A stretch of 54,437 nucleotides of DNA from a virus (Duplodnaviria; Caudoviricetes). A program made the translations under genes and the position numbers. Position 1 is the first letter of the stretch. Every line of letters begins with the position of its first letter. The notes under the pieces were generated by a model. That model was not told the origin of the DNA and made no database searches. It saw only the letters and a program-made list of their open reading frames with translations. Below, piece after piece: positions 12,100-47,417 of this stretch. The stretch spans positions 1 through 54,437 of the IMG/VR virus record IMGVR_UViG_3300042807_000082; one strand, written 5' to 3'.

Positions 12100-13544
12100 G
12101 CGAAGTTATTGATCAACAGGAGACGGTCAATTACTCGCCACCCGGAGAGAAGGCTAAAGCCTTTCATGGCTCTGATGCGTTTGTCAGGGGCTTGATGGGT
12201 CCGGTTGGTTCTGGCAAGTCATCGTCCTGCTGTGTGGAAATCATGGCGAGGGCGTTGAAGCAAGAGCCTTGGATTGATGGCGTGAGGCGTTCTCGGTGGG
12301 CGGTGATCCGTAATACCTATCCAGAACTGAAGTCGACCACCATCAAGACGTGGGAGACGTGGTTCCCGAGTAATGTGGCTCCCATCCGTTGGGACACGCC
12401 GATTACATCGACGGTGACCATTCAGGATATTGGCGACGGGACTTCCCTTGAACTGGAAGTTCTGTTTTTGGCTTTGGATAAGCCTAGTGAGACTGGCAAG
12501 TTGCGGTCGCTTGAATTGACTGGAGCGTGGATCAATGAGGCTTCTGAAGTTCCTAAAGAAATTTTTGACATGGTCACCCAGCGGGTCGGACGTTACCCGT
12601 CCAAACTCCGTGGCGGACCAACGTGGTGTGGAGTCATCCTCGACACCAACCCCCCAGACGACGACTCTTGGTATTACAAAATCGCCGAAGAGCAAACCCC
12701 GGAAGGCTGGCAGTTCTTCCGGCAACCGGGCGGTCTCTACAAAGAAGGCGAAGAGTACAAGCCGAACCCGGAAGCCGAAAACATCGACAACCTCCCGAGC
12801 GGATACCAGTACTACCTGAACCAACTTGGCGGCAAAGACGACAACTGGATCAACGTCTTTCTGCTGGGGAACTACGGAACCACGGCGGACGGCAAGCCTG
12901 TCTACCCAGAGTTCAACGACAAGATCCATGTGGCGGACAAGCCCATCGAACCCATGCGCGGTTTGCCTATTGTGCTGGGCTGGGACTTCGGGTTGACACC
13001 CGCCTGTGTGATCATGCAACAGACCCCACGGGGTCAAGTGGTCGTCCTCAAGGAGATTGTTTCCGAGGACATGGGTATTCGGCAGTTTGCCAACGACGTT
13101 GTGAAGCCAATCTTGATGAACGAGTTTGGCGGCTACTTCCGAATTTCAACGGCTGACCCTGCCGGTCAGATCCGGGCGCAGACAGATGAGCGAACCTGTC
13201 TCCAAGAATTGTTGGAGTCTGGCATCCCAACTGAACCCGCCCCGACCAACGACTGGCTCCCACGCCGAGAGGCAGTTGCCTACTTCCTTACCCGCATGGC
13301 GGATGGACAACCGGGGTTCCTCCTCGATCCATCTTGCACGAACTTGCGTAAAGGTTTCAACGGTAGGTACAAGTACGAGCGACTTAAAACAAGCGGTCCG
13401 GCTCGGTATCGAGACCGCCCAGTCAAAGACGATATGTCCCACATCCAAGATGCCTTGCAATACGCTTGCTTGCGTTTCCGCAATGGCTTGACTGGACCGA
13501 GGGTTAGAGCCGTCAAGACTTCATCAAGTAAAGGTTGGACATGA
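12096..13544 (+). CDS. terL: Terminase large subunit
   Basis: Walker A GPVGSGKS, Walker B WINEASE, DTNPP, RNase H GWDFG and SHIQDALQY. Confidence 0.93.
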   Translation: MSEVIDQQETVNYSPPGEKAKAFHGSDAFVRGLMGPVGSGKSSSCCVEIMARALKQEPWIDGVRRSRWAVIRNTYPELKSTTIKTWETWFPSNVAPIRWDTPITSTVTIQDIGDGTSLELEVLFLALDKPSETGKLRSLELTGAWINEASEVPKEIFDMVTQRVGRYPSKLRGGPTWCGVILDTNPPDDDSWYYKIAEEQTPEGWQFFRQPGGLYKEGEEYKPNPEAENIDNLPSGYQYYLNQLGGKDDNWINVFLLGNYGTTADGKPVYPEFNDKIHVADKPIEPMRGLPIVLGWDFGLTPACVIMQQTPRGQVVVLKEIVSEDMGIRQFANDVVKPILMNEFGGYFRISTADPAGQIRAQTDERTCLQELLESGIPTEPAPTNDWLPRREAVAYFLTRMADGQPGFLLDPSCTNLRKGFNGRYKYERLKTSGPARYRDRPVKDDMSHIQDALQYACLRFRNGLTGPRVRAVKTSSSKGWT

Positions 13545-15571
13545 CCATAGCAATTGCGAAAGCCCCAGTAGAAATGGAGGTCATGGCGGTAACGCCAGAA
13601 ACCGAAGCCCTCGAACTGGCTGAGATCGCACTGGCGGCTCACATCCGTGATTGCTGGGCGAAGGCAAAATTTGCCAAGACCGAACTGGTCGAGCGCCTCC
13701 TGAAGTGTGAGCGTCAGCGTCGTGGCGTCTACGACCCCGACCGGGCTAACGATATTGCTAAGACTGGCGGCTCTGACATTTACATGAGGCTGACGGACAT
13801 CAAGTGCCGTGCGGCGGCTTCTTGGATTCGTGACGTCATGGCGACCCTTCAGGACCGCCCTTTCGCTTTGGAGCCTTCCGAGGAGCCACAACTGCCTCCT
13901 GAGATTCAGATGGCGATCATCGACATGGTCCGCCAAGAGGCTGAAGCGTTTGTCAATGCTGGCGCACAGATCCACCCTGAGGCTTTCCGCACCCGGCTGG
14001 AAGTTGTCCACGAGCAGATCAAACTGAAACTGAAAGACGAGGCGCGTGATTCTGCCCGTCGCATGGAAGACAAGATCGAGGATCAACTGACGCAAGGCAA
14101 GTTCCAAGATGCCTTCCGTGATTTCATCGACGACTTTGTCACCTACCCTACGGCGATCATCAAGGGACCAAGCGTCCGCCGCCGTAAGTCCATGAAGTGG
14201 GGTAACGACTTCACCCCCGTGGTCACAACCGACTTTGTTCGTGAGTTCGAGCGAGTCTCCCCCTTCGACATCTACCCGTCTCCCAACTCCTCTGGCGTTG
14301 CAGACGGCTGGTTGATTCAGCGACATAGACTGAATCGCACGGAGTTGCAATCACTTCGCGGAGTGCCGGGCTACTCTGACGAGAACATCGATCAGGTGCT
14401 TGAGCGTTTTGGCGACAAGGGATTGCGTGAGTGGCTCATGGGCGACCAAGAGCGCGACAACCTAGAAGGCAAGCCTCACTCCCGTCTGTATTACGACGGC
14501 GTCATTGAGGCTCTGGAGTTCTGGGGTTCGTCTCGTGGTGCTGACCTCATTGAGTGGGGCATGAGCAAGAAGGACATCGACGAGGATAAAGAGTACGAGA
14601 TCAATGCTTGGATGATTGGTCCCTACGTCATTAAGTGCGTCATCAACCCAGATCCTTTGGGCAAGCGTCCTTATGAGATTGCTTCTTGGGGCGAGATCCC
14701 CGGTGCGTTCTGGGGGACTGCCCTGCCCGAGCAGATGCGTGATACCCAGACCATGTGTAATGCGGCGGCTCGTTCGCTGGCAAACAACATGGCGATTGCC
14801 TCTGGACCTCAGGTCGAGGTATCGGTCGACCGTCTACCGGACGGCGAGGACGTGACCTCCATGTACCCGTGGAAACTCTGGCAGACCACTTCCGACAGAA
14901 CCGGCGGTGGTCAGCCAGCCGTTCGCTTCTTCCAGCCCGGTATGAACGCTGACGTTTTGCTTGGCGTCTATCAGAGTTTCATGAAGCAAGCCGACGAGGT
15001 TACTGGCATCCCGAACTACATCTACGGTTCAGGCGTTGCTGGCGGCGCAGGTCGCACGGCTTCCGGTCTGTCAATGCTGATGGACAACGCCGCCAAGGGA
15101 ATCAAGGCGGCTATCGCCACCGTAGACCGAGCCATCTCTGGAATCGTTTCTCGCCTGTACGTTCACAACATGATGTACGACGAAGACACGTTTACCAAGG
15201 GTGACTTCCGAGTCGTAGCGAAAGGCGCAAGCGGCATGATCGCTCGTGAGCAACTTCAGTTGCGTCGCAACGAATTCCTGCAAGCCACTGGTAACCCGGT
15301 CGATATGCAGATCATCGGCATGGAAGGTCGTGCTTACCTCCTGCGCGAAGTTGCTCGTAGCCTCCAGATGGACACCGACAAGTTGGTTCCTGATCAGGAG
15401 GTCATCAAGTTCCGACAGGAGCAGATGGCGGCAATGCAACAAATCATGGCGGCACAGCAAGCGGCACAAGCCGGTGGTGCGCCTGAGTTACCTGCCCCGC
15501 AGGAAATGGACCCCGCTGGCAACCCTGCTGGTGGAGCGGATGTAAACACTATGAATGGAGTGATGCGATGA
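13535..15571 (+). CDS. Portal protein
   Basis: 678 aa after terL; RVSPFDIYP, GRTASGLSMLM, Gln-rich tail. Confidence 0.88.
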   Translation: MDMTIAIAKAPVEMEVMAVTPETEALELAEIALAAHIRDCWAKAKFAKTELVERLLKCERQRRGVYDPDRANDIAKTGGSDIYMRLTDIKCRAAASWIRDVMATLQDRPFALEPSEEPQLPPEIQMAIIDMVRQEAEAFVNAGAQIHPEAFRTRLEVVHEQIKLKLKDEARDSARRMEDKIEDQLTQGKFQDAFRDFIDDFVTYPTAIIKGPSVRRRKSMKWGNDFTPVVTTDFVREFERVSPFDIYPSPNSSGVADGWLIQRHRLNRTELQSLRGVPGYSDENIDQVLERFGDKGLREWLMGDQERDNLEGKPHSRLYYDGVIEALEFWGSSRGADLIEWGMSKKDIDEDKEYEINAWMIGPYVIKCVINPDPLGKRPYEIASWGEIPGAFWGTALPEQMRDTQTMCNAAARSLANNMAIASGPQVEVSVDRLPDGEDVTSMYPWKLWQTTSDRTGGGQPAVRFFQPGMNADVLLGVYQSFMKQADEVTGIPNYIYGSGVAGGAGRTASGLSMLMDNAAKGIKAAIATVDRAISGIVSRLYVHNMMYDEDTFTKGDFRVVAKGASGMIAREQLQLRRNEFLQATGNPVDMQIIGMEGRAYLLREVARSLQMDTDKLVPDQEVIKFRQEQMAAMQQIMAAQQAAQAGGAPELPAPQEMDPAGNPAGGADVNTMNGVMR

Positions 15572-15891
15572 AGGGTCGAGCAATGATGATTCCTCAGGGC
15601 TACAAGAACGGCGGCAAGGTTAAGCCGTTCAGTGGCAAGGACACCAAGGCTGAAGAGATGGCTGAAGCAAAAGCCGTCCGCTCTGGCAAGGTCTCCCCCG
15701 CTCAGTACAAAGCCAAAGAGATGGCAGAGGAAAAGCGTGAGGGTGAGAAGTCCAACCCTAAGAAACTGCTTGAGACCGGAAAGCGTCTAGCCTCCGGCAA
15801 GATGTCCGCCAGTCAGTATGGCAATGCCGCGAAGATGGCGGATGGCGGATACGTTTGCGGTATGCGCTCCAAGCAAGATTACGGGAAGTAA
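15568..15891 (+). CDS. Small basic head-region protein
   Basis: Lys-rich; YKNGGKV and MADGGYV motifs. Confidence 0.65.
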   Translation: MKGRAMMIPQGYKNGGKVKPFSGKDTKAEEMAEAKAVRSGKVSPAQYKAKEMAEEKREGEKSNPKKLLETGKRLASGKMSASQYGNAAKMADGGYVCGMRSKQDYGK

Positions 15892-37445: not shown

Positions 37446-38966
37446 ATGGCAAATCCATATGATTTAACCAGCGGCTACCTGTCCGCAAAGAAACTCAAGC
37501 AGGACAAAGAGTACCAAGACAAGGTTGGTGAGTACTACGATGCTCGTATCGCCGACACCAAGGAAGATACTCGCAGAAAGAAAAGCCGTAACGACTTCGC
37601 CGAGAAGATGATGGGCTGGATGGGCGGCTCCATCTTTGGTGTCGAGACTCCCAAGGCACCTGATGCCGCAATTGCAAAGCCGCCTCCATCCATGACGCCA
37701 CAGTCTGGCATGAGTACTCAATCCGGCAATGGCATCAAGCCCATGAAGATTTCTTCTGGCGTTGATTTTGAAGATCCATCGCTTGATCCATCCCGTCAAG
37801 GACTGGCTCAACCCGGCTATATGTTGGAAGCCGCTGATGGTGCCTACATTGATGAGGACACCATTCGTCGGTATGGCATTCGGGCGTATAACAACGGCTC
37901 GATGGGTGGTGTTGCCCCTATCACTGACGACGAGGCTCGTCGTCTAGGTTACGGTAGCGCACAAGAGTACACTGAATTTGAGGGCGGTCGCGGTCGCGCT
38001 GATGTCCAAGTTAATCCCGTGGCAAGTCGTGCTGGCGTAGCAACTCCAATCGACATGATGCCGGTTTCGGCTCCTGTAAATCAGAGGGCTGGCATTGCCA
38101 CCCCGACAGATGGCACTACGGTTACTCCTAGCGGTGAGTCAGCAAAACCTGCGGCTGAACCACAGAAGTCCCCTTTCCAAGAGTTGGCTCAAAAAGATCC
38201 AAAGACAGCGGAGTCTCTGTTCAACAAGGTGTCCAACTTCAAGAATCTTTCTAACGTCATTACCGGTCTGTCAATGATTGATTGGGCTGACGAGAAAGTC
38301 ACCGGATCTTCTCTGATGACAACAGTGAACACTCTTGCCGCGATGAAGAAGGAAGGTGTATTCCAAGCGGCATCTGCAATGGCGGCTGGGAATATTGAGA
38401 AGGGCAAAAAACTTTACAAAGAGTTTGGCGATGACGTTGGTGACTTCGATGTGGAAACTCGCATCTCCAAAGAAATTGACCCAAGAGATCCGAATGGCAA
38501 GAGGATGCTGGAAAAGAAGGTCTTCGACCTTAAATTCCAAGACGGCTCGACTATCACGCTTGACCCTCGTCGTTTGGCTTTGGACACTCTGTCCGCCAAG
38601 GCTCTGATTGAGCAAGAGGGTAAAGAGCGTGACGACCTATATCGTGAGCGCGGTCTTGATCTTCAGGCTCAAGACTTGGCTTCTCGTGGCAAGGATCGCG
38701 CACAGCGTGACGACGACAAGTTGTTCCAGTTGTACATGAATCGTGGATCTGCCGGCATCGAAGCACTCAGCAAGGAAGAGCAGAAGCGAATCGAGGCTGA
38801 CAATGAGTTGGCTATCGACGGGAAGAAACGGAAGTCTGAGGAGTCGGCAGTTGCTTCTCGCATTGCCCGAGCGCAAGAGATTTACTACGACGAACTCATT
38901 GCTGGTCGTTACCCACCTCCTCCGCGAGTGATTTACGAGGCTATCAAAAACGGCAAAATCAAGTAA
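37446..38966 (+). CDS. Internal virion / DNA ejection protein
   Basis: Position between ejection genes; helical, low complexity. Confidence 0.65.
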   Translation: MANPYDLTSGYLSAKKLKQDKEYQDKVGEYYDARIADTKEDTRRKKSRNDFAEKMMGWMGGSIFGVETPKAPDAAIAKPPPSMTPQSGMSTQSGNGIKPMKISSGVDFEDPSLDPSRQGLAQPGYMLEAADGAYIDEDTIRRYGIRAYNNGSMGGVAPITDDEARRLGYGSAQEYTEFEGGRGRADVQVNPVASRAGVATPIDMMPVSAPVNQRAGIATPTDGTTVTPSGESAKPAAEPQKSPFQELAQKDPKTAESLFNKVSNFKNLSNVITGLSMIDWADEKVTGSSLMTTVNTLAAMKKEGVFQAASAMAAGNIEKGKKLYKEFGDDVGDFDVETRISKEIDPRDPNGKRMLEKKVFDLKFQDGSTITLDPRRLALDTLSAKALIEQEGKERDDLYRERGLDLQAQDLASRGKDRAQRDDDKLFQLYMNRGSAGIEALSKEEQKRIEADNELAIDGKKRKSEESAVASRIARAQEIYYDELIAGRYPPPPRVIYEAIKNGKIK

Positions 38967-38975
38967 GGGCTGGTC

Positions 38976-41900
38976 ATGGCACTAGAAAACGAAGTCAACG
39001 AATACTCACGACAGTTTGGTATCCGTGCCACCCCAGTTTTCAAGGACGCCGATACTGCGAAGGACGAAGTCCGTCGTGGTATCGCACGTCCTCAAACAAT
39101 GGTGGAGATGCAACGCCGCTATGGTGCGCCGGACATCCCTACTGAAACTGGTGAGCCGGTAAATGACACCCCTCTGGCAGAGAAGCCAAAGCCAGCAGTA
39201 GACCCTAACGACCCCAGCGGTGGTGTCGGCTTTGTCGACTCCGTTAAAAAGGGTTGGCAAGGTGTCATGCTCACATGGGACTTTCTGGCGAACAAACTGG
39301 AAAAGGCTGTCACCGGAGACACCAAGGATACTGAGCAGATTCTGGCGGCATCAGCCGAAAAGTACTTGGGAATGAAGTCTGACCCTCGGATTGCCAAAGC
39401 AATCGAGGTTGCATCAGAGTCATTCGACAAAGAAGATGGAGTAGTCGCTGGAACCTATGAAGGCTCCAAGGCGATGCTCGGGTTCTTTGTTGACAACCCG
39501 GGGGCAATCGTCAACTTCTTGGGTGAGCAAGTTCCTGCCTTGGGTGCGGCTGTTGCCCTTCGCAACCCTGCCGCCGCAGTGCCTACCGGGATCGCCAGAG
39601 GACTGGTGACCCGTGGTGCGCTCTCCTCAATTGAAAGTGCCGCTGTAAAGGGCGCTATCGTGCGAGGCACTGAGATGGCTGCCAAGGGTGCGGCAATCAA
39701 CTCTATTGCCGTTGTCTCTGGGTCGCTGGGTAGCAACTACGTCGAGGGCTTGGAAAAGTTTGGCGGAGACACCGAAGCGGCTAAAGATTATGCCACCACC
39801 AAGACGCTTGCTGAAGTTCCAGCCAACGCTGTCGCTGGTGCATTCATGGCGTTCAATCCATTTGCCAGCCGTTTTGCCAGTCCAACTCTAGCCGCTACGG
39901 CAAACGTCGGAACTCAGGCTGTTATTCAGGGTACTGGTGGTGCTACCGGTGCTTACATGGCGGCTAAGTCTGTCGGCGAAGATCCTAAGTTCGGCGAACT
40001 CGCACTGGAATTCTTCGGTGAATCGTTGACCGCACCTGTTGATGTTCTTGCAACTCGCTCAGAGATTAAAGCCGATCGAGCCAAAGAGGCTAGAGATAAG
40101 GCAATGGATGGCGTCACGGTTGGAGTCGATCGACTCAACCAGATGGTGAACACAGACCGTGGTCTGAGTGTATTTGCCGCAATGTATCAGGATGCAACTC
40201 CTGAGGTGAAGACAAAAATTGATGCTGTTGTCGAGGGCGCGGGTCTGACAGACAAGTTCCAGTCTGCGCTAGAAGACAAGAAGACAGTTGAATCAGGGCA
40301 AAAGATTGTTGAGCAGAACCAAGCCTTCATTGGTGTGGTTAATCGCTCTCTGTCTGCCGTGACTGACGATGCTTTGGCTGATCTAAAAGCAAGCAATCAG
40401 AAGACTGCCGATGCCACCACTGAGGCTCCGGCAACTACTGAGACTCAGCCTCAATCGACCTCGGTCCGTATCACCGATCCGGCTGGAAAGGTGTATGAGG
40501 GGACCATGCTGGCTAACGGCATGATTGAAGCAAAGATGCCTGACGGCAGTTCGTTTACTGTTCCCGCTTCTTTCGCCGCCAAGATCGAACCTATTCAGTC
40601 TGGAGAAACCAATGCCGCTGAAACCGGGCAAAAGCCAAAGGGTCGTAAAAGCAAACGTGTCGGAACTGATGAGCAAGTTCAAACAGACGGGCAAACTGGG
40701 GTCGTCGAAACCGCAGAGCAAACAGGCGGCACAGAAACAGGCGGTGGCGATAGCACTGTCCAAGGCGGGGGCGAAACGCAAGTAGCGGATACCACTGCAA
40801 AGGTAGCCAAACAAACCACCCCGAAACCTCGCAAGGGTCGCCGCTCTCGCGGCGCAACAACGGACTTGGAATCAACCTCCAAGAACATTGACGACCTGAC
40901 CAAGATGGCACAGGAGAAAGCCGCTCGTGGTGAGAGTCTGACAGCGGAGGAAACCTCCGCCATCGAGCAAGCAATTGCCGAGGGCAAAGCCGCTGTAAGC
41001 AAGGCTCGTGAGACTGCCGCCAAAGGCGAGGCTCTGGCTAACGAGGCTTTAAGCACGACCACCGATAACAGCACGGCTACTACTGAAGCACCCGGTGCTA
41101 CTAAAGCCAAGCGTGTCAGCAAGCGCAAACAACAAGGTGTTGTTGGCGACCTGTTGCAAGCCAACCGTGAATTGAAGCAGGAAGAACGTGAGGCAAACAA
41201 AGAGACCAACAAGAAGAACCGCCAAGCGGCTAGAAGCGATGCCTCGCTGGACATCCTCGAAGAGGATGTTGTGGCTGGTCGGATCACTGCTGACGAAGCC
41301 AAGGCAAAAATTGCCGATGCAAAGAAGGCAAAGCAAATTAACGCTGGTCGTGCGGCTCAACTGACGTCCAAGGTTGAGCAGGCTGTTCGCACCCGTGAGG
41401 AAAACAAAGCCAACGAGCAAGCCAAGGCTGAGTCTGGTGGCTCTGAAGCCCTCACAAACCGCATCAGTCAGGAACTGAACCGGATTGAGGCTGAGAAGCA
41501 AGATGCCCAGATGAAGGCTAAGAACAAACGACCAAGCCGTGGCGCGGTCAAGAAGGAAGTTCTTACCGAGGAAATCGGAGCGGTCAACAAGTACGTCAAT
41601 GACTCAATCGTTCGAGTAACGGAGGGGATCTCATCAGATGTATCGGCAAGTTTCTTGGAAAAATCTGCTTTGGCGTTGGGTAGCCTTGCCAAACAACTTG
41701 AGACCAGAGCCTCAGAGATTGCGCCGAACACATCGATTGGTATTTGGGTGAAGTCTTCGCTGAACAATCTAGCGCGAGATGTCCGTGCGGCAGAGGGCTT
41801 GGTCAAAAAGGCTCAGTCTGAGCAGACTGGCAAGTCTCGTGAGCAAGCGCAGAAGGCAGTTGACCGGATCATCGACAACGCTCGTAAAGTTCTGGGGCGC

Positions 41901-44900
41901 GGCAACGAGACCATCACTCGCATCGAGAACCGTGACAACGCAACCGAACTGGATGAGGCTCAATTCACCCCAGAGGAAGTGGTTGAGTCTGGCACTAAGA
42001 CTGGCAGACCCAAGGGGTCGAAGGACGTTCTGTCCAACTTTGCCGGTAAGCCGTTTGCTGAGTTTGGATTAGATGAGTTCACGGACACGAAAGACCCTGA
42101 AGTCTTTTTGTCCGGCGGCGGACTTGGATTCCTGTCAAAGGACAAGTGGTTCCGGTCACTGGATGCCGCACTACGGAAGGCGTCGAAGAACAAGGACGTT
42201 GAACTACGCCAAAACATTCTGGATTCCATCAAGGATTCGGAACTTCAAGCCTATGAGGCTTGGAAGGAAGGCAAGAGCAAGCGTCTAAACCTGTTGCGCC
42301 AAGCGACTAAGGACAAGTCCATCAAGCAAGAGCAACTGAAAGCCTTGCTGAACGACCCGGACTTTGTGTTCTCCGGTTATGTCTTCAATGACTACCCCAA
42401 CCTAGCCCTGTTTGAGCGTCCGTTGGAGTATCTGCGCCAGCGCAACCCTGACGTTGATACCAGCAACGCCATGTACAGGGCAATCCTGCGCTTGGGCGGT
42501 GGTGTCGCTGACAGTTCGAACGTCTGGTTTGAATCCATCTTTACCGCTATCAGCAACCGACCAGACCTAGAGGGTCAGATTTTGAGCCGGTTGTCGAATG
42601 ACGAGGTCGCTCGATATAAGCAGTGGTCAGAGCGTCAAGACCGGGCAATGGACTTGGCTCAACGGATGCGCCAGCGTGGTGCTGAATACAAGCGATACAT
42701 CGACATCATCGATGAGTACGGCGCAGACGCTGAAGGTGTTGAGATTTCTTACGAGCAGTTGCTCGGAGTTATTGGCGACATCGAGCGTTCTGGTGGTGAC
42801 ACAGCCAACCTGTTTAGCCGAGGTGCTGGCACGGGTGGCGGCGGTATGTCCGTGGCTTCTGTCTACGCAATGGTCAAGCAATTGACTAAGGGCTGGACCA
42901 ACGCCCCCAACATCGAGGTGGTAAACGCTGAGATTGACTTGCCCCAATCCATTAAGGATCGGTTGGCTAAAGACATCGAGCGCAACCCCGATGGCGTTGC
43001 TCAAGGTTACTTCGACCAAGAGACCGGCACGGTGTACCTCTTTGCCGACAATATGTTCTCTGGCGCGGACGTTGAGTTCACCCTGTTCCATGAGACCTAC
43101 GGTCACTACGGCTTGCGTGGCATTCTTGGCGACAAACTCAACGCATTCCTGAACAGAGCCTATGCCACAAGTAATCGTGTGCGTGAGGCTACCAAGGCTT
43201 GGCTGGACGAAAACCGTCCTGACAACGCTGGCAAGGAATGGGACGCAGAAAACCGACTGCTGGCTATTGAGGAGGGTCTATCTAACCTCAACGCACAGGG
43301 TCAGGAACTGGGTCTGTTCAAACAAGTGCTGGTCATGATTCGGGACTTTGCCGAGTCTATGGGCTGGGACAGCATTGTTGAGTATCTCGACAATGTCTCT
43401 GAGGTCGAGGTCGCATCGGTGCTGGCAGATGCACGTCAGTATGCAAAAGACGGCAACCCATTCACCTTCAGCACCACTGGCACTGCCCTCTTCCTACGCG
43501 CAGGACACTTGAGCCAAGCCAACTTCGACGAGTTCGTACTGAACAATAGCGTTCAGGACTCAGGCTTTGGTGACTCCGTCTACTCTGGCGGCGTCTACTT
43601 CTATCGTGATACAAACCTTGGTCAGGGTTACCTGATGCGGGTGAATCTCGGCTCTGCCGGTCTCGTGCCTCGTCGTGGGAATCCAAAGTCTATAAACCAG
43701 CACATCGAGGATGCAATCGACAGCGGCGGAAGTGCTGGAGTTTTGGAGGCACCTCAGGCAAACGCTGTTCTTGAGATTGTGGAAGAGACAAAGCGTCTTG
43801 CTTATGCCGCCCGTCTGGAAAAACTGGACGATTTAAGCCCAATCCTGAAGAAGGTTGCCAGCGAGTACGAGAGCCGCATGGAAGCCGAGATGGAAGTTGC
43901 CGAGAACGATGGCGATATGGACGCTGTCAGTGCATACGCAGAGGCTATTTCCAAGGCTCGTGAGATTGCCAACTGGAAGATCAACCAAGTTGGCGATCCT
44001 GTGAAGTATGTGGTGGAGATTGATGACAAGGTTGTCTCCGACAACTTTGCCCAGTGGGACGGGAAGATTTCTGATGGTCCCAAGTCCGTCCAGCAATTCT
44101 TTGCCGACAGACCATACATCAAGTCTGTGCTGAAACTTGCCGCAGAAGACCCGAACTTTGCCGCAAATATCCGCTCATCTGGTAACCGCACTGCCCTCGA
44201 TCCAAACAACCCAACATTCGCTTGGGCGTATGACGCTTTGGTTGAGTACAAACGAGCCAATATGTTTGGCAACAGCCGTGGCAATCAGTCGGATGTCAAT
44301 GCCGCCAAACTAGATGTGGCAAGCGAGATGTCTGAGGGTGGGGTCAAAGGTAGTTTCCACTGGGAGACTCAACGCTCGAAAGATGAAGATCCAAATCTGG
44401 TCGTATACGACCCGAAGATGATCCGCATCGTCAAGAAAGAGCCGTCGCCCAAGAGTCCTGCTCTTTACTCGCGCAAACAGCAGTCACGTCCGGTGGAAGT
44501 TGTCGCCAAGAAAGGTGACAAGACCCACGGTCTGGCTGTGTACGACCCGATCCTCCAAGAGTGGACTATCTTCACCAATCCAAACGCCGACATCCGAACT
44601 GGCAAGCACAACGTGCAATACGCCAAGAAGATTGACGACGTGATGAATGTCTTGAAGACCGTCCCGGGTGTGCAAATCACATCGATGAAGGCTTATCCGG
44701 GCAGGACTCCTGCCTCGCCTCAGGTCATGGTTGCAACGCAACAGAACCAGAGCGCATTCAAGAAGATGATCCAGCGCAAGATTGACGACATCGTCATCTA
44801 CACGCAGAACCAGTACCTCCCGATCAAGCGTTATGTGGATAACCTTCGTGCAAACGAGCGGCTTTCTGACGACGCCAATGTCTGGCAGAAACTGATCCTG

Positions 44901-47417
44901 TATCACGGTCGTGCTGGCGCAAAACTGGACAACTTCAACAACGAGTACGTTAAGCCCATCACAGAACTTGCCAAGGCAGTTGCCAAGGCTGGTGGTTCTC
45001 TGAAGGAAATTGACGACTACTTGTACGCACGTCACGCCATTGTTCGTAACGAGATCCTGCGTCAGCGGAACTCGAAGAAGGACTCCGGTATGTCTGATGC
45101 GGAAGCCAACCAGATCCTGACGGACGTGCAGAACAAGCCGTATGGCATGGAGTTGGAGCAGATCGGTCGACTGATTGACGCGATGGCGGAAGCCAAGCCC
45201 CAGTTGATGTTTGATGCTGGCTTGATTTCTCAAGCCCAGCGTGACGCTCTTGCCAAGATGAAGCACTACGTCAACCTGTCTGGTCTGGATGCGCTGGAGG
45301 ATCAGGACATCCCCAACTTTGGCAGACGCTTTAACTTGCGTGGGTCTGAGATCAAAGCCGCAACCGGACGTACAAGCCGCGCAACCAACGTGCTGGCTCG
45401 GACGATTGCAGACTTTGAGGCGAAGATCATTCGAGCAGAGAAGAACCGAGTTGCTGAATCAGTCCTCAAGATGATTGAGGAAAACCCTGATCCCAACTTT
45501 GCCGTGGTTCAGCCGCTCAAGCGCAAGGCAGTTCTCGACAAGAACGGGAACGTGGCTTATGTCGGCGACCCAATGTGGGACCAGAAGAACGGTGCGCTGG
45601 TTGTTAAACGCAACGGTCAGGACGTGAAGATTGAATTCATGGACAAATCCCAGAATTCATTCGCTGACGCTATTGGCGGTCTCTACAACCAAGGCGAGAT
45701 GTCTTGGATCATCAAAGCGGCAATGCGCTGGAATCACTTTGCCTCTGCGCTGGTGACCGTGTATGCACCTGACTGGGTGGTGGTCAACGGTATGCGAGAT
45801 ATGCAGACCGCTTTCTACAACTCTCGTGCTGACTTCGGTAACGAACGAGCCATCAAGATGTTCACCGAAACCAAGAACTCTTGGAAAGGTGCGCTGAAGT
45901 TCCTGACCGGGGCTGGCAATCAGAACGATGTGTACGTCAAGTACTACAACGAACTGCGTGAAGCAGGCGGTCTGACCCACTTCCTGAACATGGACACCGT
46001 TGGCGATGTGTCAGCCCAGATGGAGAAGGCAATTGCCAAGGTAGCCAAGGCACAAGGTGCGTCCGGCATCTTGTCTAAGGCTGGCGGCATGACGATCGAT
46101 GGGATCGGTGCAGTATTCCGTGGTCTTGAGACGTTCAACAAGACGATTGAAGCCGCGCCTCGCCTAGCCGCCTACAAGGTACTGCGTGAAAACGGGTTCT
46201 CCAAGGACCAAGCCGCCCAGTATGCCAAGGAGTTGACGGTCAACTTCAACATGAAGGGCAAGCAACAGGGTATCTCTGCCGCTTACCTGTTCTTCAACCC
46301 CGCTGTGCAGGGTACTGAGCGCATCTACCGTGCGTTCAAGAATCCCGCTACTCGCCAGATGGCTATGAAGACTGCCGGTAGCCTCATGGTCTTGGGCTTT
46401 GCCGCTACCGCATACTCGCTTGCCGCAGGCGGCGAGGATGAGGACGGCGTTCCGAAGATCAAAAAGCAACCAGAGTACAAGCGTCATACCTCGATTGTTC
46501 TGCCGATCCCGGGCGCGGAAGAAACCATGCTGTCTATCCCGTTGCCCTATGGCTGGAACTTCTTCTACGCCGCTGGCGTGGAGTTGGCTAACACGGTGCT
46601 GATGAACAAGTCGACAGCAGATGCTGGCTTGTCCGCCATCAAGGCTTTCCTTGGTGCTTACTCTGTGTTTGGCGGGGATGACTCCTCCACCTTCTTTGGC
46701 TGGATGGGTAAGAACGTCACCCCCACCCTTGGGAAGCCAGTGGTCCAGTGGATGATGAACGAAAACCGGTTTGGTTCTCCGATTTACAAGGAGTCCCCGG
46801 GGTTCATTCCAAACAAGCCGCCAGCATCCGAGCAGTACTTCGAGTCCACCTCGTACTTCTCCCGGTTTATCACTCGGAAGATCCACGAGATGGCTGGTGG
46901 TACGCAGACTTTGCCAGCAGAGAACAAGATGTTCGACATCAACCCAGCATTGCTGGACCACTTGTTCAGGTCTTATGTGCCGGGTCTGCCGAGCGACGCT
47001 TTCAAGGCAATGGACGTTGGTTACCGCAAGTCTCTTGGGTACGAAGTTCCACCCAAGGCAATGCCGCTGATTGGAAGGCTCACCTCTACAACGCCGGAAG
47101 GCTACGACATTGGTGCGTTGCGGAAACTCAGTGAGTATGTGGAGACCCGCTACTCAGCCCTCAAGGACATGAGCGATGCCGACCAAGAGAAATACCGTGC
47201 AAGGTTCCCCAATCTGGCGGATATGCATGGAGTCGTCGAGCAGTGGAGGAAGTTCTCCATGAGTGAGCGGGAGTCCATCAAGAATGCCCGGGCTGACAAG
47301 AGCATTCCTGAGGACGTGCTGATCAAGGCTATCAACGAGTCGAAAGCCAGAGAGCGGAAGTATGCCGCTCAGTTGGTCAAACGAGCCGTCGAACTAGGTT
47401 ACGACGACAAGTTCTGA
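38976..47417 (+). CDS. Giant polyvalent ejection protein (zincin-like peptidase, ART-like region, LPD38-like C-terminus)
   Basis: 2813 aa; LFHETYGHYGLR; GHLS..NFDEF...GFGDSVYSGGVYF; ELTVNFN, YLFFNPAVQG, IPLPYG, NENRFGSPIY. Confidence 0.8.
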   Translation: MALENEVNEYSRQFGIRATPVFKDADTAKDEVRRGIARPQTMVEMQRRYGAPDIPTETGEPVNDTPLAEKPKPAVDPNDPSGGVGFVDSVKKGWQGVMLTWDFLANKLEKAVTGDTKDTEQILAASAEKYLGMKSDPRIAKAIEVASESFDKEDGVVAGTYEGSKAMLGFFVDNPGAIVNFLGEQVPALGAAVALRNPAAAVPTGIARGLVTRGALSSIESAAVKGAIVRGTEMAAKGAAINSIAVVSGSLGSNYVEGLEKFGGDTEAAKDYATTKTLAEVPANAVAGAFMAFNPFASRFASPTLAATANVGTQAVIQGTGGATGAYMAAKSVGEDPKFGELALEFFGESLTAPVDVLATRSEIKADRAKEARDKAMDGVTVGVDRLNQMVNTDRGLSVFAAMYQDATPEVKTKIDAVVEGAGLTDKFQSALEDKKTVESGQKIVEQNQAFIGVVNRSLSAVTDDALADLKASNQKTADATTEAPATTETQPQSTSVRITDPAGKVYEGTMLANGMIEAKMPDGSSFTVPASFAAKIEPIQSGETNAAETGQKPKGRKSKRVGTDEQVQTDGQTGVVETAEQTGGTETGGGDSTVQGGGETQVADTTAKVAKQTTPKPRKGRRSRGATTDLESTSKNIDDLTKMAQEKAARGESLTAEETSAIEQAIAEGKAAVSKARETAAKGEALANEALSTTTDNSTATTEAPGATKAKRVSKRKQQGVVGDLLQANRELKQEEREANKETNKKNRQAARSDASLDILEEDVVAGRITADEAKAKIADAKKAKQINAGRAAQLTSKVEQAVRTREENKANEQAKAESGGSEALTNRISQELNRIEAEKQDAQMKAKNKRPSRGAVKKEVLTEEIGAVNKYVNDSIVRVTEGISSDVSASFLEKSALALGSLAKQLETRASEIAPNTSIGIWVKSSLNNLARDVRAAEGLVKKAQSEQTGKSREQAQKAVDRIIDNARKVLGRGNETITRIENRDNATELDEAQFTPEEVVESGTKTGRPKGSKDVLSNFAGKPFAEFGLDEFTDTKDPEVFLSGGGLGFLSKDKWFRSLDAALRKASKNKDVELRQNILDSIKDSELQAYEAWKEGKSKRLNLLRQATKDKSIKQEQLKALLNDPDFVFSGYVFNDYPNLALFERPLEYLRQRNPDVDTSNAMYRAILRLGGGVADSSNVWFESIFTAISNRPDLEGQILSRLSNDEVARYKQWSERQDRAMDLAQRMRQRGAEYKRYIDIIDEYGADAEGVEISYEQLLGVIGDIERSGGDTANLFSRGAGTGGGGMSVASVYAMVKQLTKGWTNAPNIEVVNAEIDLPQSIKDRLAKDIERNPDGVAQGYFDQETGTVYLFADNMFSGADVEFTLFHETYGHYGLRGILGDKLNAFLNRAYATSNRVREATKAWLDENRPDNAGKEWDAENRLLAIEEGLSNLNAQGQELGLFKQVLVMIRDFAESMGWDSIVEYLDNVSEVEVASVLADARQYAKDGNPFTFSTTGTALFLRAGHLSQANFDEFVLNNSVQDSGFGDSVYSGGVYFYRDTNLGQGYLMRVNLGSAGLVPRRGNPKSINQHIEDAIDSGGSAGVLEAPQANAVLEIVEETKRLAYAARLEKLDDLSPILKKVASEYESRMEAEMEVAENDGDMDAVSAYAEAISKAREIANWKINQVGDPVKYVVEIDDKVVSDNFAQWDGKISDGPKSVQQFFADRPYIKSVLKLAAEDPNFAANIRSSGNRTALDPNNPTFAWAYDALVEYKRANMFGNSRGNQSDVNAAKLDVASEMSEGGVKGSFHWETQRSKDEDPNLVVYDPKMIRIVKKEPSPKSPALYSRKQQSRPVEVVAKKGDKTHGLAVYDPILQEWTIFTNPNADIRTGKHNVQYAKKIDDVMNVLKTVPGVQITSMKAYPGRTPASPQVMVATQQNQSAFKKMIQRKIDDIVIYTQNQYLPIKRYVDNLRANERLSDDANVWQKLILYHGRAGAKLDNFNNEYVKPITELAKAVAKAGGSLKEIDDYLYARHAIVRNEILRQRNSKKDSGMSDAEANQILTDVQNKPYGMELEQIGRLIDAMAEAKPQLMFDAGLISQAQRDALAKMKHYVNLSGLDALEDQDIPNFGRRFNLRGSEIKAATGRTSRATNVLARTIADFEAKIIRAEKNRVAESVLKMIEENPDPNFAVVQPLKRKAVLDKNGNVAYVGDPMWDQKNGALVVKRNGQDVKIEFMDKSQNSFADAIGGLYNQGEMSWIIKAAMRWNHFASALVTVYAPDWVVVNGMRDMQTAFYNSRADFGNERAIKMFTETKNSWKGALKFLTGAGNQNDVYVKYYNELREAGGLTHFLNMDTVGDVSAQMEKAIAKVAKAQGASGILSKAGGMTIDGIGAVFRGLETFNKTIEAAPRLAAYKVLRENGFSKDQAAQYAKELTVNFNMKGKQQGISAAYLFFNPAVQGTERIYRAFKNPATRQMAMKTAGSLMVLGFAATAYSLAAGGEDEDGVPKIKKQPEYKRHTSIVLPIPGAEETMLSIPLPYGWNFFYAAGVELANTVLMNKSTADAGLSAIKAFLGAYSVFGGDDSSTFFGWMGKNVTPTLGKPVVQWMMNENRFGSPIYKESPGFIPNKPPASEQYFESTSYFSRFITRKIHEMAGGTQTLPAENKMFDINPALLDHLFRSYVPGLPSDAFKAMDVGYRKSLGYEVPPKAMPLIGRLTSTTPEGYDIGALRKLSEYVETRYSALKDMSDADQEKYRARFPNLADMHGVVEQWRKFSMSERESIKNARADKSIPEDVLIKAINESKARERKYAAQLVKRAVELGYDDKF
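40612..40785 (+). CDS. 57-aa basic protein nested in the +1 frame of the giant gene
   Basis: GGAG-6nt-ATG; MPLKPGKSQ...KQAVAIALSKAG. Confidence 0.7.
   Translation: MPLKPGKSQRVVKANVSELMSKFKQTGKLGSSKPQSKQAAQKQAVAIALSKAGAKRK

Follow-up and report, generated by a model that had tools for sequence, protein, structure and literature searches.

A conserved small phage gene that probably lies out of frame within the linker of a giant polyvalent virion protein gene

This work concerns a stretch of phage DNA of 54,437 nucleotides (nt), IMG/VR record IMGVR_UViG_3300042807_000082, positions 1 to 54,437, which as a whole is referred to here as the window, and in which a small gene lies inside a much longer one encoding a 2813-amino-acid (aa) polyvalent protein. 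Our results make it very probable that positions 40612-40785 are a case of genuine dual coding, in which an older small gene has been overprinted by the disordered linker of the polyvalent virion protein. In the proposed mechanism, translation from 38976 would turn the overlap into residues 546-603 of the giant protein, a flexible linker rich in G, T, Q and E, and a second set of ribosomes would bind an internal GGAG at 40602-40605, start at the ATG at 40612 in the +1 frame and stop at the TAG at 40783-40785. The product of this internal start would be a separate 57-aa, strongly basic protein, predicted to form a helical hairpin, of the phrog_2423 (DUF6496-like) family. The small gene would be the older partner and the giant's linker the newer, overprinted frame, shifted two nt 3' of the small frame.

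The layout is that of an Rz/Rz1-type pair, with a short open reading frame (ORF) lying wholly within a long one, on the same strand and in a different frame (40612-38976 = 1636 = 3x545+1, the giant's +1 frame). A preliminary description of this DNA had reported a GGAG, six nt and an ATG at 40612 opening a 57-aa +1-frame ORF, in a part of the host frame that reads as a low-complexity G/T/E/Q linker. The coordinates and the translation match exactly, and the composition of residues 546-603 agrees with the linker assignment: the giant-frame overlap holds 13 G, 10 T, 7 Q and 6 E per 58 residues and is 10% hydrophobic, within a low-complexity zone that spans about giant residues 480-720. The small protein contains 12 Lys, 2 Arg and 1 acidic residue, with an isoelectric point (pI) of 11.4.

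The peptide belongs to a family with many members. It matched the phrog_2423 hidden Markov model (HMM) with E 1.8e-7 and 32.1 bits, in two stretches of which the best covered residues 1-21, and a search of 5.8 billion clustered metagenomic proteins returned 37 homologues of 58-98 aa with 63-79% identity. A scan of IMG/VR viral contigs revealed at least 446 loci encoding a relative, and a scan of one genome per species revealed 29 loci, the metagenome-assembled genomes (MAGs) being labelled Mycoavidus, Bacteroidales, Alphaproteobacteria and Burkholderiales, among others. Thus, the homologue search that the preliminary description had proposed, and that was run here, did find homologues, and the widespread stand-alone small phage protein that it had invoked exists. 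The phage DSL-LC04 carries one such copy, an 83-aa gene annotated as hypothetical that begins before the portal gene has ended. Besides this phage, tblastn against GenBank phages at E ≤ 10 gave 6 further records, matching residues 1-20 only, and blastn of positions 40300-41100 against GenBank phages gave no match. A match of the peptide to the NCBIfam family MetN (E 0.095) was at chance level and was discarded.

The window peptide and its 37 homologues were aligned (alignment A1, 38 rows). Eighteen columns are invariant (M1, P2, L3, G6, N15, E18, G27, G30, S32, P34, A40, K42, Q43, A44, A46, I47, A48 and L49); the window peptide keeps 18/18 of them and the other nested lineages described below keep 16-18/18. 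As a control, the other out-of-frame ORFs inside the giant gene were compared with the PHROG collection, and 0/10 matched any family at E ≤ 0.01. Since all 18 invariant columns are kept and the control ORFs match nothing, the nested ORF exceeds what chance would produce. AlphaFold2 on A1 predicted a helical hairpin, with helices at residues 9-26 and 37-52 and a mean predicted local distance difference test score of 83.5. With respect to Pfam DUF6496 (PF20106), the peptide scored 16.3 bits (E 0.013) against a gathering cut-off of 24 bits, weak matches were present in 31/38 rows of A1 (best E 7.4e-5), and the Atlas cluster that the protein matched at a score of 0.92 carries DUF6496 on 17% of its members. 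A distant relationship of the small family to DUF6496 is plausible, short of established membership. Both phrog_2423 and DUF6496 are of a size like that of the small protein (52-58 profile positions) and neither family has a recorded function; a full-text literature search for 'DUF6496' found no paper.

Next, the arrangement of the small gene was compared across 80 viral loci and the 29 genome-contig loci. In 64/80 viral loci the gene stands alone, with the other frames closed, and the usual succession runs from a giant ORF (1700-2300 aa) through a portal gene (about 785 aa) and the small gene to the head genes. In the remaining 16/80 it is nested inside ORFs of 2140-2813 codons, and further nested copies are present in L089 (1/29 genome-contig loci) and in L121, found among the relatives of the window's giant. 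Together, the nested copies fall into six deep lineages, namely the window; L121; the L005 group with L042; L031/32/34; L039; and L089. In every nested copy the small frame is the +1 frame of the giant, and each lineage has its own start codon (ATG or GTG), preceded at 5-8 nt by a GGAG/AGGAG-type motif in the window, the L005 group, L042, L031/32/34, L039 and L121. The nested copies are 57-68 aa long, without the variable C-terminal tail of most stand-alone copies, and their position within the giants ranges from residue 546 to residue 1168. The ribosome-binding site and start are conserved in relatives, as in Rz/Rz1-type pairs, the motif being weaker in L089. Note that the nested copy is the sole copy of the small gene within the 54-kb window record; at 13541-15891 the window's portal gene (676 aa; phrog_332 and phrog_1216) is followed by a 107-aa ORF that is not a copy of the small gene.

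The proteins encoded around the nested genes are far less alike than the nested products. Among the giants of the nested loci, similarity is confined to a C-terminal module of about 830 aa (26-29% identity), in which LPD38 is found in the window, L005 and L031 giants and ART-PolyVal also in L005. Two genes upstream of the giant lies the gene for a virion structural protein, for which identity between the window and L005, L042 and L031/32/34 amounts to 30-37%; the internal virion proteins of the window and of L031/32/34 share 32% identity. Across the same lineages the small protein, at 60-69% identity, is the best-conserved product of the region.

Within the overlap, the lineages are 60-69% identical to one another when compared in the small frame, against 30-46% in the giant frame, and the differences pile up at small-frame third positions (18, 14 and 28 at positions 1, 2 and 3 between the window and L005). 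The ratio of nonsynonymous to synonymous substitution rates (dN/dS), calculated by the Nei-Gojobori method (NG86), was 0.18-0.60 in the small frame, below 1 in 15/15 pairs, and 1.29-2.70 in the giant frame of the overlap in 15/15 pairs; NG86 is not built for overlapping frames, in deep pairs the proportion of synonymous differences (pS, 0.46-0.67) approaches saturation and branches are common to several pairs, and despite these caveats the direction of the contrast is unambiguous. The giant frame was then inspected for stop codons in 49 distinct 52-codon sequences, 7 nested and 42 stand-alone. It is free of stops in 7/7 distinct nested copies, and also in the nested L089 and L121, and it contains 1-14 stops in 42/42 distinct stand-alone copies. 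Codons ending in T make up 1% in nested copies versus 23% in stand-alone copies, a near-absence explained by the need of the -1 frame of a Lys-rich gene to avoid TAA, TAG and TGA. As in Rz/Rz1-type pairs, both frames are maintained by selection, the small one as judged by its dN/dS and the giant one by its freedom from stops. The preliminary description had claimed true dual coding and had named frame-specific dN/dS as a check; the purifying selection on the small frame, together with a giant frame that is stop-free in nested copies only, upholds that claim.

Regarding expression, a scan of positions 38500-41500 gave 0 promoter sites and 5 terminator-like sites (3.4 expected), of which 4 lie on the minus strand. 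Around the small-gene start, a stretch of 121 nt folds less well than 198/200 shuffles. The lack of a promoter-like site, together with the weakly folded start region, points to internal initiation at the small gene on the late mRNA that encodes the giant, and we infer that the small frame is translated in this way. Gene callers, as the preliminary description had anticipated, miss it: in an exact look-up among about 15 billion called proteins the 2813-aa giant was present, called on 2 contigs, and 0/4 of the ATG-started nested peptides were found in the same collection. Longer in-frame fused forms of the small protein were limited to two proteins of 103-104 aa, and none was a fusion to the giant, which is weak evidence.

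Which frame came first was addressed by the phylogenetic-distribution criterion, as it is presented in the part of PMC8227390 that we drew on. By this criterion the small frame would be the ancestral one. The preliminary description had supposed that a small gene was absorbed through read-through of the giant ORF. The polarity of that claim, an older small gene and a younger giant segment, fits the phylogenetic distribution; the read-through route does not share this standing: no split intermediate (gene A, small gene, gene B) was present among the 64 stand-alone viral loci, and insertion or recombination of a cassette made of linker plus gene is equally possible. In a tree of 71 distinct small proteins (54 columns), the best topology needs 4 changes of the nested label and the well-supported branches force only 1, and a single clade of the 9 nested rows was not rejected by the approximately unbiased (AU) test (p 0.197). 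Judging from these sequences, nesting may have arisen once or several times. A loose pattern for the giant-frame shadow of KQAVAIAL matched 8/8 known nested giants, once each and at the right place, and matched 3/50 relatives of the giant's N-terminal domain too, the latter at the protein level. When the N-terminal 545 aa alone served as query for related loci, 41 loci matched the pattern and 0 were confirmed.

Three other explanations of the nested ORF were weighed against dual coding. The small ORF could be a silent, untranslated relic swallowed by the giant ORF, its sequence having been kept through recent ancestry or through constraint on the giant's linker. The giant frame is certainly open, and the nested copy can be lost, as 7/8 of the closest giant relatives with enough DNA are without one. 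However, six deep lineages, at 60-69% nucleotide identity, keep the start, the stop, 16-18/18 invariant residues and, except in L089, the Shine-Dalgarno (SD) sequence; the substitutions accumulate at small-frame third positions, with small-frame dN/dS below 1 in every pair. The giant-frame peptide is the poorly conserved one, and a low-complexity linker cannot account for 60-69% identity in the other frame, so that we regard a relic as highly improbable. It is also conceivable that the 2813-codon frame is really made up of three genes, with the small one in the middle, and that its openness across the small gene is accidental or an assembly error. A low-complexity, poorly conserved giant-frame peptide would suit this, as would a giant-frame Met codon shortly downstream, in TKMAQEK. 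Yet translation of the upstream part must run on, for want of a stop in the giant frame; the 7/7 distinct nested copies, L089 and L121 are all free of stops there, against 0/42 distinct stand-alone ones, and T-ending codons are nearly missing from the nested set. Moreover, in full-length relatives of 2300-3000 aa a single chain holds the N-terminal, middle and C-terminal blocks, in the order seen here (blastp), and the identical 2813-aa protein is called on both contigs. Separate genes are thus highly unlikely.

Frameshifted isoforms are common in phage structural genes, and a programmed +1 (or -2) shift from the giant into the small frame would yield a truncated giant isoform of about 600 aa ending in the small domain. 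A site for such a shift could exist in the window, where the 29 codons ahead of the ATG (from 40525) are already free of stops in the small frame. Entry by frameshift is nevertheless unlikely. No more than 3 open small-frame codons precede the GTG in the L005 group, which excludes such entry in those loci, and the stand-alone relatives begin at the invariant Met-Pro-Leu; in addition, a start codon is kept in every nested lineage, and an SD sequence in all but L089. Judging from the open frames, starts and SD sequences, we give a frameshift very little credence.

Several observations weigh against dual coding as proposed here, in addition to the limits of NG86 given above. L089 has a weaker SD sequence (GAGG), and some lineages start with GTG. 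The sole full-length homologue among GenBank phages (tblastn, E ≤ 0.01) is the one in DSL-LC04, which is a stand-alone copy, and the nested arrangement is absent from cultured relatives. Nesting is patchy: among the 8 viral loci with at least 1900 codons of the giants closest to that of the window, only L121 has a nested copy, and since the other 7/8 lack it the giant does not depend on the nested gene. The structural comparisons gave no function. Foldseek against the Protein Data Bank (PDB) found no match at E ≤ 0.001 (best E 3.7), and the BFVD matches were solely uncharacterised small phage proteins, at E 0.02 or worse, bar one entry of 195 aa labelled as a CopG repressor (E 0.02), which was not relied on. 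With these points taken into account, dual coding, with the small gene as the older partner, is still the explanation that we strongly favour.

Features of the nested pair and of its host gene in the window.
Feature	Position	Strand	Basis or remark
Shine-Dalgarno-like GGAG	40602..40605	+	sequence; giant frame reads Gly-Glu there
Spacer aaacca, 6 nt between GGAG and small-gene ATG	40606-40611	+	sequence
Small-gene start ATG and stop TAG	40612-40614 (start), 40783-40785 (stop)	+	sequence
Nested small gene, 57 aa	40612..40785	+	pI 11.4, 12 Lys, predicted helical hairpin, phrog_2423 family, DUF6496-like
Host (giant) gene, 2813-aa phage-type polyvalent protein	38976..47417	+	single open frame
Overlapped giant-frame segment, residues 546-603	40611..40784	+	low-complexity G/T/Q/E linker, stop-free
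Conserved N-terminal domain of giant (about residues 60-460)	39153..40355	+	50 representative relatives
LPD38 domain of giant (residues 2496-2698)	46461..47069	+	Pfam PF18857 match

The host gene was analyzed in its own right. Its product matches LPD38 (PF18857) with 96.1 bits, against a cut-off of 27, and phrog_14770, phrog_616 and phrog_10691 match residues 1932-2797. Genes close to it match phrog_8003, a virion structural protein family, and phrog_511, an internal virion protein family. The host gene thus encodes a large multidomain protein that carries LPD38 and lies among virion genes, as polyvalent proteins do. The N-terminal domain was found in 50 representative proteins (E ≤ 1e-3), mostly of 2000-4800 aa, in which it is also N-terminal, and the search for relatives of the giant with alignment A2 returned 11 loci. 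A HETYGH motif is present at giant residues 1372-1377 (43089-43106), inside a block (1218-1493) common to the closest giant relatives; it might be a metallopeptidase-like site, and a Pfam scan of the giant matched no family at this block. Relatives of the C-terminal module (44766-47414), 27-31% identical to it, occur in 336 GenBank phage records, including Ruegeria phage 45A6, Stx-converting E. coli/Shigella phages (annotated as LPD5 domain-containing or hypothetical) and Vibrio, Ralstonia and Burkholderia phages, and tblastn found no nested small gene in those 336 records. In L039 (12955-16092) the giant has 2140 aa, with the nested gene at residue 1168 and no detectable LPD38, and is directly followed by a 1045-aa ORF; the two may be a split form of the giant.

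Giant genes also accompany the stand-alone copies. In L029, L043, L044, L049, L050, L053, L067, L071, L072 and L081, a giant ORF of 1400-2340 aa precedes the portal gene (-8400 to +250 of the small gene), and the L072 giant carries Zeta_toxin. Since these stand-alone loci also have a giant before the portal gene, the small gene is linked to giant polyvalent genes in both arrangements. Two other arrangements were observed. In eight loci from Bacteroidales, Bacteroidia and Ignavibacteria MAGs (L090, L092, L096, L098, L100, L101, L105 and L106) a -1 frame open for 75-133 codons spans the whole of the stand-alone gene; this may be due to chance, to another short ORF that overlaps the gene or to a stage on the way to overprinting. 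In L095 (2289-3629) a 447-codon +1-frame ORF starts inside the small gene, and may be a downstream gene that overlaps its 3' part.

What the small protein does can be suggested only tentatively. Its strong basic charge, its high conservation and its position after the portal gene, beside or inside a polyvalent giant gene, lead us to propose as a possibility, with rather low confidence, a role with capsid-internal cargo at the portal, or in binding DNA or another invariant target. Among hosts of different phyla it is conserved much more strongly than the structural proteins of the phage are. A more specific and more speculative idea is that it is an obligate partner of capsid-packaged polyvalent proteins, for example a loader, a plug or a DNA-end binder for packing the giant cargo or ejecting it via the portal, with its gene locked in the giant's linker for co-inheritance and co-expression; this we consider rather unlikely. 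If it were true, the pair would show Rz/Rz1-like functional coupling within a virion module, and would be the first polyvalent-protein gene with an out-of-frame passenger gene as an extra 'domain'.

The closest known parallel is λ Rz1, a short gene lying wholly within the longer Rz on the same strand, in the +1 frame and with its own start, and routinely missed by gene callers (PMC6139136). Embedded and separated arrangements both occur among two-component spanins, and the part of that survey used here describes no spanin family that mixes embedded with separated members (PMC6139136). As far as that account goes, the window pair resembles Rz/Rz1 in being embedded, in the +1 frame, with its own start, missed by callers and existing in embedded and separate forms, and differs from the spanins in that a single small-protein family holds both nested and stand-alone members. 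Unlike Rz1, the small protein shows no sequence or functional relation to it, has no lipoprotein signal and is encoded in a virion module, not in a lysis cassette; unlike in Rz/Rz1, the overlap falls in a linker, at 19-21% of the length of the host gene. The host gene is also about 18 times longer than Rz.

Classical viral overprinting, as the portion of PMC8227390 used here presents it, likewise has one widespread frame and another that is restricted and rich in disorder-promoting residues. In contrast to that classical picture, it is here the inner gene that is old and has stand-alone homologues, and the new frame, of which only the linker is newly born, comes from the outer gene. The host gene fits the phage-type polyvalent proteins, which are predicted to be packaged in the capsid (Iyer et al. 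2017, PMC5512222); the fit extends to its relatives, which carry ART-PolyVal, and to a giant beside stand-alone copies, with its Zeta_toxin. The words 'overlapping' and 'frameshift' are absent from the main text of PMC5512222, where an out-of-frame gene inside a polyvalent gene is not described, and a literature search on overlapping or nested genes with internal virion proteins gave no description of the present case among the papers that it listed. The nested pair is a new variation on the embedded-gene theme, with the older gene inside.

These results have several implications. Embedded genes are systematically lost in phage annotation, as illustrated by a public collection that holds the giant and none of the four nested peptides. 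The polarity is the reverse of the usual one, an old and widespread gene lying inside a younger frame that serves only as a disordered linker, and it indicates that a modular giant protein can expand across a gene already in place and leave it intact. A family with both nested and stand-alone copies, and with a codon signature of few T-ending codons, is a natural test set for selection methods that take overlap into account. Finally, an uncharacterised and very conserved small protein is now tied to portal and polyvalent-protein genes, which narrows the search for its function.

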